IMG/VR virus record: IMGVR_UViG_3300012281_000006
DNA from: a virus
Taxonomy: Duplodnaviria > Heunggongvirae > Uroviricota > Caudoviricetes
DNA: 18,129 nucleotides
Strand: one strand, 5' to 3'
Positions 9,526-10,585 of the stretch are shown here, piece after piece (the first letter of the stretch is position 1; each line of letters begins with the position of its first letter). Under the pieces are notes generated by a model. It saw only the letters and a list, made by a program, of their open reading frames with translations. It did not search any database and had not been told where the DNA came from. The position numbers were made by a program, and so were the translations under genes.

Positions 9526-10585
9526 CGGGGAGTTTCAGCTTTGGATTGCGAGAATGGACGATTACAAAACTTTCCCGGCCTTTCTTCTCAATTGAACAGT
9601 CGAGATAGCCGATTGTTTTAAGCTGTTCTATCGCTTTCTTAATGATACGGTTTTGCTCGCCAACAGCTGACTGTAAAGCCAGGCGCTCACGGATTCGCGC
9701 GAACGATAGCGGCAACGGGTTCTGCGGAAGGCTTTCGATGAAAGTGTAAATGGCTTGTGCAGCTTCTTTCTTCGGAAGGGCACGCAAGGCGTNNNNNNNN
9801 NNNNNNNNNNNNNNNNNNNNNNNNNNNNNNNNNNNNNNNNNNNNNNNNNNNNNNNNNNNNNNNNNNNNNNNNNNNNNNNNNNNNNNNNNNNNNNNNNNNN
9901 NNNNNNNNNNNNNNNNNNNNNNNNNNNNNNNNNNNNNNNNNNNNNNNNNNNNNNNNNNNNNNNNNNNNNNNNNNNNNNNNNNNNNNNNNNNNNNNNNNNN
10001 NNNNNNNNNNNNNNNNNNNNNNNNNNNNNNNNNNNNNNNNNNNNNNNNNNNNNNTTCCAGCTCGATCAGATCGAGGTCAGCATCGAAACGTCCGACCTTC
10101 AACAGACCAGTCTGGTAGCCACCTTTAGCATCTTTACCGCGCTTAAAAGCGATCCCCTTGTTACGCAAGCGGCCAAGTGATTCATGAATGGTTAAACGCA
10201 GTTTCGCATCCAGACGTTTTGAGGGGAAACCACAGGCTTTAGCGAATTCCTAAAACGATAACTGGATGGTGTTTGAGGACAAGCCGTATTTGCTGAACGC
10301 GTAGATAACACCGATCCACGTTTTGAAATCAGTATCCATATCGAGTCGAGGACCGGTGATTTTAATGTCATCGTAACCTTCTGCTTTAGCTATCTCCAGC
10401 TGGGAAAACGCTTTGGTGGCATCAATCTCTTTACTTTCTCCTTTGCTCTTTGATGGCTTCGGCACGAATACCCCCAAGCGCATCAACGCTACAGGCTGCA
10501 CAGTGTTGTTTGAATTAACTGTTAGTTCTTTTGCCTTACTTTCAATGTCTGCGTAAAGAATATCGGAGATAAAAGATTGATTCAT
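9521..10585 (-). CDS. repA: Replication initiator RepA, interrupted by an in-frame amber (TAG) codon and spanning a 262-nt N-run
   Basis: N-terminal 111 aa MNQSFISDILYADIESKAKELTVNSNNTVQPVALMRLG... then TAG at 10250-10252 (plus-strand cta), then the same frame continues EFAKACGFPSKRLDAKLRL...LRNKGIAFKRGK... through the gap to ...IGYLDCSIEKKGRESFVIVHSRNPKLKLPE; flanked by incC and incA iterons. Confidence 0.8.

Follow-up and report, generated by a model that had tools for sequence, protein, structure and literature searches.

An in-frame amber codon in repA of a P1-like phage-plasmid scaffold: sequencing artefact or recent null allele?

The question raised by this locus is whether the amber codon (TAG) that interrupts the repA gene of a P1-like phage-plasmid is a real nonsense mutation or an error in the sequence by which it is known. 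The window, i.e. the whole stretch of 18,129 nucleotides that was analysed, is an entire JGI/IMG metagenome scaffold and it represents part of a P1-like (Punavirus, IncY) phage-plasmid. Over the length of the window, the nucleotide identity to P1, P7 and several hundred plasmids of E. coli, Salmonella and Klebsiella is about 97.5%, and it is identical to none of them; the closest deposited match for the repA region is pUMNF18_103 (98.7%). The repA gene is on the minus strand, where the frame begins with an ATG at 10585, encounters TAG at 10250-10252 (codon 112) and then resumes as RepA up to a TAA at 9521-9523. The coding strand in this part reads ...CAG TTA TCG TTT TAG GAA TTC GCT AAA GCC..., and the ORF which stops here (10250..10585, minus strand) encodes a product of 111 aa with the C-terminal end ...NTIQLSF. 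The first-pass annotation of this DNA had described 111 codons from the ATG at 10585, the TAG at 10250-10252 and RepA sequence continuing in frame, and had interpreted these as a nonsense point mutation rather than as two genes. The alignment with P1 repA bears out this description, and the sense codon which P1 has at this position is CAG (Gln).

At repA nt 334, the first base of codon 112, the window has T, whereas P1 (L002) and pUMNF18_103 (L001) both have C, which converts CAG (Gln) into TAG. This single C>T change at window position 10252 (G>A on the plus strand) lies directly after a TTT run, and it is the sole non-synonymous difference from the repA genes of P1 and pUMNF18_103 on the 5' side of the gap described below, all other differences being at third positions or synonymous. 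Codons 1-111 (10253..10585, minus strand) have the amino acid sequence of P1 RepA residues 1-111; past the TAG (10250..10252, minus strand; CAG in all relatives) the same frame reads EFAKACGFPSKRLDAKLRL... through codon 177 (codons 113-177 at 10055..10249, minus strand) and again corresponds to P1 RepA; and the frame beyond the gap (ALRALPKK...KLKLPE; codons 198-286 with the TAA at 9521-9523, located at 9521..9792, minus strand) shows 100% identity to P1 RepA residues 198-286. The RepA of the window and of P1 are thus identical for residues 1-111, 113-177 and 198-286. As the reference RepAs are a single 286-aa protein with CAG in this position and RepA sequence is found on both sides of the stop, the interpretation in terms of a nonsense point substitution, and not of two genes, is also upheld. 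In full-length P1 RepA, Pfam identifies the domains Rep3_N (WH1) at residues 94-215 and Rep3_C (WH2) at residues 228-270, and a search of Pfam with the 111-aa product matched no family. Due to this lack of any Pfam match in the fragment, a genuine stop at codon 112 would be a null allele. The near-identity and collinearity with P1 RepA place this gene in the P1/IncY Rep_3 replicon; however, one polypeptide carrying both WH1 and WH2 is not encoded by the sequence as written and would be encoded if the TAG is an error.

In evaluating this codon, the structure of the scaffold is of importance, as it consists of three contigs that are joined across two gaps of incorrect size, one of which lies within repA itself and was overlooked in the first-pass annotation. 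That the window is a complete scaffold follows from the JGI/IMG records of the exact 111-aa product, the longest contig of which has 18,129 nt and thus the length of the window. The gap in repA comprises 262 N (9793..10054), where relatives have 58 nt (codons 178-197), and the second gap comprises 48 N (480..527), where relatives have 6 nt (CAGTTA). Because the flanking sequences in all relatives are only 58 nt and 6 nt apart, both N runs are, as judged from these alignments, scaffold gaps whose size has been over-estimated, and they are neither masks nor insertions. A length-preserving mask over a 204-nt insertion in repA was considered and rejected, since the other N run is also of incorrect size (48 N for 6 nt). 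It will likewise be incorrect to attach significance to the fact that the frame is kept across the repA gap (262-58 = 204 = 68 x 3), which is a 1-in-3 coincidence and not evidence. The edge of this gap, and thus a contig end, is located 196 nt downstream of the TAG. A chimeric assembly at the TAG was also rejected, as a pUMNF18-like haplotype is seen on either side of it. Near the other gap, base 531 (T), which is 4 nt from the 480-527 run, is private to the window and destroys a GATC that is conserved in all relatives; in its position it looks like a contig-end error.

The remainder of the replicon is arranged as in the P1 plasmid-prophage replicon (IncY), with which the window shares the gene order oriR/incC - repA - incA - parA parB parS. 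As in P1, 19-bp iterons are present on either side of repA and DnaA boxes are present at the origin. The incC iterons of oriR (10642..10745, minus strand) include five 19-mers, four of them at <=3 mismatches, and by homology to the P1 annotation they overlap the repA promoter region; the incA array on the 3' side of repA (9237..9521, both orientations) contains six copies at <=3 mismatches; and the iteron search returned 10 matches, where chance alone would give 0.01. DnaA boxes are found in tandem at the outer end of oriR (10845..10862, minus strand), and a DnaA-box-like site is present in the repA leader (10604-10612). The cis-acting elements of this replicon are intact. The adjoining partition operon consists of parA (7770-8963, minus strand; 99.7% aa identity to P1) and parB (6752-7750, minus strand; 100% aa identity to P1), both of which are intact, and none of the 20 P1 genes with a counterpart in the window is interrupted. 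The 3' end of repL, which encodes the initiator of the lytic replicon, occupies 1..411 (plus strand) by synteny with annotated relatives, in whose loci, beginning 100 nt before the window match, the corresponding CDS is at 1-511; the lytic replicon does not depend on RepA. On these comparisons, the locus is a P1/IncY iteron replicon in every respect that was tested, except for the initiator ORF, which is broken as written. It differs from P1 in having TAG instead of CAG at codon 112, in the scaffold gap that takes the place of codons 178-197, and in belonging to a lineage apart from every deposited record.

Several other features of the window were recorded. In the repA leader, at window position 10621 (36 nt 5' of the ATG), the coding strand has a private G, where 109/109 relatives have T, and this base adjoins the DnaA-box-like CTATCCACA at 10604-10612. 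Two private A>C changes, at 2115 and 2118 (3 nt apart), convert aaaAccAccc into a seven-C run; both are synonymous in pmgG, and they could be either real or a homopolymer-related error. The gene dmt for a Dam-family methyltransferase (14366-16381, plus strand) lacks, in frame, residues 265-350 of P1 Dmt and in this respect resembles its 2019-nt counterparts in pUMNF18_103 and pMB2910_2; the length of dmt varies in P1-like elements (versions of 2019, 2265, 2589 and 3042 nt), and this gene carries most of the private non-synonymous changes in the window. Three tRNA genes are present at 17058..17773 (plus strand), viz. Asn-GTT, Thr-TGT and Ser-TGA, the third of which (17687-17773, plus strand) is an 87-nt tRNA-Ser(TGA) such as phage D6 has; in P1, a tRNA-Ile(CAT) is found thereabouts.

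The TAG was also looked for in other copies of the gene. A 61-mer centred on the TAG was matched in 277 records of complete E. coli genomes and in 272 PLSDB plasmids, in all cases at 60/61 positions with CAG in place of TAG. A degenerate-pattern search identified 32 metagenome and 55 IMG/VR loci, with CAG in 87/87, and about 97 aligned repA copies similarly have CAG (Gln) at codon 112. Exact 35-mer and 25-mer patterns containing the TAG gave no match in the viral_contigs, genome_contigs and metagenome_contigs sets, outside of which the contig of the window itself evidently falls. The exact 111-aa product is present on 23 contigs (in ranking these, contigs with DNA extending past the gene were placed first), and only 2/23 have an internal TAG. 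Both of these are ENA metagenome contigs (ERZ28514655 NODE_21285, k-mer coverage 1.58, and ERZ28769570 NODE_14618, k-mer coverage 2.23), and this pair of carriers is referred to as L010 and L011. The other 21/23 are truncated by contig ends, with the sequence reading the wild-type C or CA where it breaks off. No TAG112 was seen among Logan contigs. In total, TAG112 is thus known from three sequences, i.e. the window and the two ENA contigs, and it is absent from about 640 copies of better quality. It is confined to assemblies that are gapped (the window) or of low coverage (the ENA contigs).

The length of 111 aa is by itself not informative, although it was considered as an outlier. Contig-end truncations that leave RepA prefixes of 107-113 aa number 3, 1, 9, 3, 13, 9 and 1, respectively, and the outlier interpretation was rejected, as the counts at neighbouring lengths are similar and nearly all records of a "111-aa RepA" are contig ends. 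The truncations do concentrate at 109-112 aa (9, 3, 13 and 9 contigs, compared with 1-3 for most neighbouring lengths). This pile-up is seen in Logan, ENA and NCBI contigs (L003-L009, L012, L015-L022), it corresponds to about 10250-10261 in the window, and it suggests a recurrent assembly break near repA nt 327-338, which could be the edge of sequence shared with a co-resident replicon.

The presence of the same amber codon in three assemblies should not be interpreted as showing that they share an inherited allele. The window, L010 and L011 have three different repA haplotypes, in which the TAG is the only common variant, and as no marker other than TAG is shared by the three haplotypes, the allele is recurrent rather than inherited. 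The haplotype of L010 is also found with CAG, in contigs that include L007, L008 and L012 and in pTZ20_1P. When compared with about 100 relatives, the TAG is the sole private base of L010 in 2011 nt, and the full-length RepA of this contig is that of P1 apart from the stop; in the window it is one of two private bases within 9001-11400. In L011, five private bases, including the TAG, are present within the last 90 nt of the contig, and 3/5 of these are C>T changes directly after T runs. The other private changes of the window in repA, parA and parB are all synonymous. Neither the multiple lesions nor the relaxed constraint of a decaying pseudogene are seen; there is a single lesion. As far as the compared sequences go, TAG112 is a tip-only and recurrent event, which is not inherited and has not been followed by secondary decay.

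The adjoining codon also shows variation. At repA nt 339 (window 10247), the change GAA>GAG in codon 113 is a natural allele, which 22/87 of the metagenome and IMG/VR copies have and which L010 and pTZ20_1P share. The G339 allele removes an EcoRI site that adjoins codon 112, and the window retains GAATTC. A link between losses of this EcoRI site and the TAG was rejected, as G339 (the case of L010) is a common allele, and T342 belongs to the end-of-contig error cluster of L011.

Based on these results, TAG112 is somewhat better explained as a sequencing artefact, i.e. a base-call error in a thinly covered metagenome scaffold, than as any real change, where a read error as the cause is deduced from the local sequence and the distribution of the codon. 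The first-pass annotation had listed error as the last of its possible causes; the nonsense substitution which it reported stands, and it is this last cause that is now favoured by the comparative evidence, the codon being absent in about 640 copies. The causes which it had named ahead of error, viz. a suppressor host, an integrated or defective prophage and a strictly lytic lifestyle, find no support in the present data. According to the favoured explanation, the underlying element would have the wild-type sequence CGTTT-CAG; due to an Illumina phasing lag, the first base past the homopolymer would be called as the homopolymer base, giving CGTTT-TAG; and with one or two reads at the site, the assembler would be without means to outvote the error. 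The underlying element would then have an ordinary functional P1/IncY replicon with RepA, the incC and incA iterons, the DnaA boxes and parAB. Substitutions following homopolymers of three or more bases make up 0.7-5.3% of all Illumina errors (Stoler and Nekrutenko 2021, PMC8002175), and the change from cgTTTCagg to cgTTTTagg has the form of this error, as the base after three T is replaced by the T of the preceding run; L011 shows two further C>T changes of this kind. Unlike a typical error of this type, however, the change follows only three T, a length at which the effect is just beginning, and L010 has no other error.

An enumeration over repA showed that there are only six positions where a post-homopolymer error yields a stop, and codon 112 is the only transition among the six, the other five being at S25, S45, S104, S122 and K148; the CAG codons Q30, Q62, Q108 and Q158, by comparison, have no T run before them. 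Because such sites are few, the same false amber could arise in independent low-coverage assemblies. We infer that a read error, at roughly 1e-3 per read, is far likelier than the recurrence of a specific deleterious allele on three occasions. The records of truncated RepA suggest, as a rough estimate, that some thousands of fragmentary repA contigs are present in the collections, and if the chance for each contig is 3e-4 to 1e-3, then an equally rough calculation predicts between one and a few contigs with TAG112, whereas a deleterious allele at mutation-selection balance would probably be orders of magnitude rarer than such errors. The lack of decay, with RepA otherwise 100% identical to P1 and 20 neighbouring genes intact, is also what an artefact would be expected to leave. 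In comparison with about 100 relatives, 15/47 coding singletons of the window are non-synonymous, several of them radical (gp21 L>P, gp22 M>K and hrdC L>R); these non-synonymous singletons and the private base that destroys a GATC are compatible with a few residual errors in the scaffold.

Other observations weigh against an artefact. Two gaps in 18 kb would, by a Lander-Waterman style estimate, allow a mean coverage of about 8x, at which single-read errors are normally removed, and L010 is otherwise error-free. The post-homopolymer-type singletons in the window number 4/54, compared with about 1.7 expected, an enrichment that is not significant, and singleton density shows no trend with contig coverage, because lineage divergence dominates it. 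Singletons that copy the neighbouring base make up 47% of the synonymous and non-synonymous changes alike and provide no discrimination. Further, disruptions of repA are found elsewhere, and C>T is the commonest spontaneous mutation.

The explanation that comes next, which we hold as a tentative one of appreciable but minority probability, is that the Gln112 amber is a real and very recent repA null in a P1-like phage-plasmid. The stop after 111 residues would then fall before most of WH1 and all of WH2; there would be no initiator, and oriR would be silent despite the iterons, the DnaA boxes and parAB. Lytic growth by means of the separate repL/oriL would be retained and the establishment of the plasmid prophage lost, and the element could persist only with RepA supplied in trans from a co-resident IncY element, by replicon fusion or by integration. 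Such genomes are to be expected in metagenomes or virions and not in cultured lysogens, and an allele defective in maintenance would be expected to be missing from isolates, as TAG112 is. In agreement with a real null, the TAG is present in the sequence and leaves a 111-aa product without a Pfam domain, the window includes the 3' end of repL, L010 is clean save for the TAG, other broken copies of repA exist (S4* in L060, a deletion in L054 and a frameshift in pTZ20_1P), and a C-terminal RepA ORF of 147 aa is recorded on 14 contigs, one of which is an NCBI contig of 94.9 kb. However, as each of the three haplotypes has near-identical relatives with CAG, this explanation requires either three independent hits at 1 of about 101 stop-creating positions or selection. 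Moreover, the assemblies in which the three carriers occur are either gapped or of 1.6-2.2x coverage, and there is no Logan contig or finished genome among them. Since neither a further lesion nor a relaxation of constraint is seen, any real event must also be placed at the very tip of the lineage.

The other broken copies of P1-like repA merit description, as they resemble TAG112 in that a single lesion is present in an otherwise perfectly conserved gene, with the rest of the replicon intact. The finished 130-kb plasmid pTZ20_1P (L118, NZ_MN510447.1) has lost the frame (-1) at repA nt 111, within a run of five G. The 55-kb metagenome contig L060 (OGWT01000124.1) has TCA>TAA in repA codon 4 (S4*), and the metagenome contig L054 (OGEZ01009397.1) has an in-frame deletion of 20 codons (repA codons 204-223) between short LP..LP repeats. 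However, all of these lesions lie elsewhere than codon 112, and whether they are real is as uncertain as it is for TAG112.

TAG112 can also be compared with the classical amber mutants of phage and plasmid genes, which depend on suppressors, and with the lacI CAG>TAG hotspots, which are at 5-methylcytosine in CCAGG. As in classical ambers, a CAG>TAG transition gives a suppressor-sensitive allele, in which the wild-type residue would be regained in a supE host; unlike them, it is found in a sequence from the environment, which differs from laboratory P1 by about 3%, and not in a laboratory mutant. A hotspot of the Dcm/5-methylcytosine type is rejected in its present form, as the site is TCAGG and not CCWGG (CCAGG in lacI). 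A template switch in the quasi-palindrome around GAATTC was also rejected on inspection, since it would give TTTAGC and not TTTTAGG.

It is improbable that the amber is real and tolerated by readthrough, i.e. that a host with a supE-type tRNA-Gln(CUA), or decoding by near-cognate tRNA-Gln, restores wild-type RepA, with the low yield of RepA offset by derepression of the autorepressed repA promoter. The lost codon does specify Gln, which is among the residues that near-cognate tRNAs insert at UAG in E. coli (PMC4333366). The P1 annotation places the repA promoter inside the incC iterons, and the autorepression by RepA is strong. Basal readthrough in RF1-proficient cells is low, which counts against a tolerated amber. 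Purifying selection on the codons downstream of the TAG is perfect in both L010 and the window; however, an error or a mutation that is one generation old would leave this part of the gene just as intact. A programmed readthrough would further lead one to expect a stop that is conserved among relatives and a suppressor tRNA. TAG112 is instead conserved in no clade (0/~640 copies), the relatives having CAG in 277 + 272 + 87 copies, and none of the three tRNAs of the window has a CUA anticodon, as the first-pass annotation had correctly stated; in addition, upfC in the window ends in TAG as an ordinary stop. We consider it similarly far-fetched that the Gln112 amber is really recurrent or selected in P1-like phage-plasmids of the gut, whether as a leaky, buffered amber or as a switch to a plasmid-incompetent, lysis-only lifestyle that is unseen in cultured lysogens. 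Lastly, the possibility that the TAG is a natural gene end (two genes or a short RepA isoform), or is read as a sense codon in the host, has in its favour nothing except that the ORF table lists an ORF of 111 aa and, downstream of it, one that starts with TTG, and it is excluded by the alignments, as the annotated relatives all encode one 286-aa RepA (WP_001076427.1 or the identical P1 protein), no in-frame ATG follows codon 112, the earliest start of any kind being a TTG at codon 140, and no further in-frame TAG was found across the 20 genes of the window, where upfC ends in this codon.

TAG112 is, in consequence, either not real at all or a trivial null allele in a gene of the textbooks, and in neither case does it represent anything new. 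If it is an artefact, then it indicates that low-coverage metagenome scaffolds can hold lone, systematic post-homopolymer substitutions that mimic nonsense mutations in essential genes, and that the same false amber may recur in independent assemblies, wrongly suggesting a shared allele. If it is real, then it would be one more null of a well-understood initiator, in a P1-like phage unable to lysogenise as a plasmid, and as such of modest interest. Only an amber that is both recurrent and tolerated would inform on the lifestyle of these phage-plasmids or on the buffering provided by RepA autoregulation.
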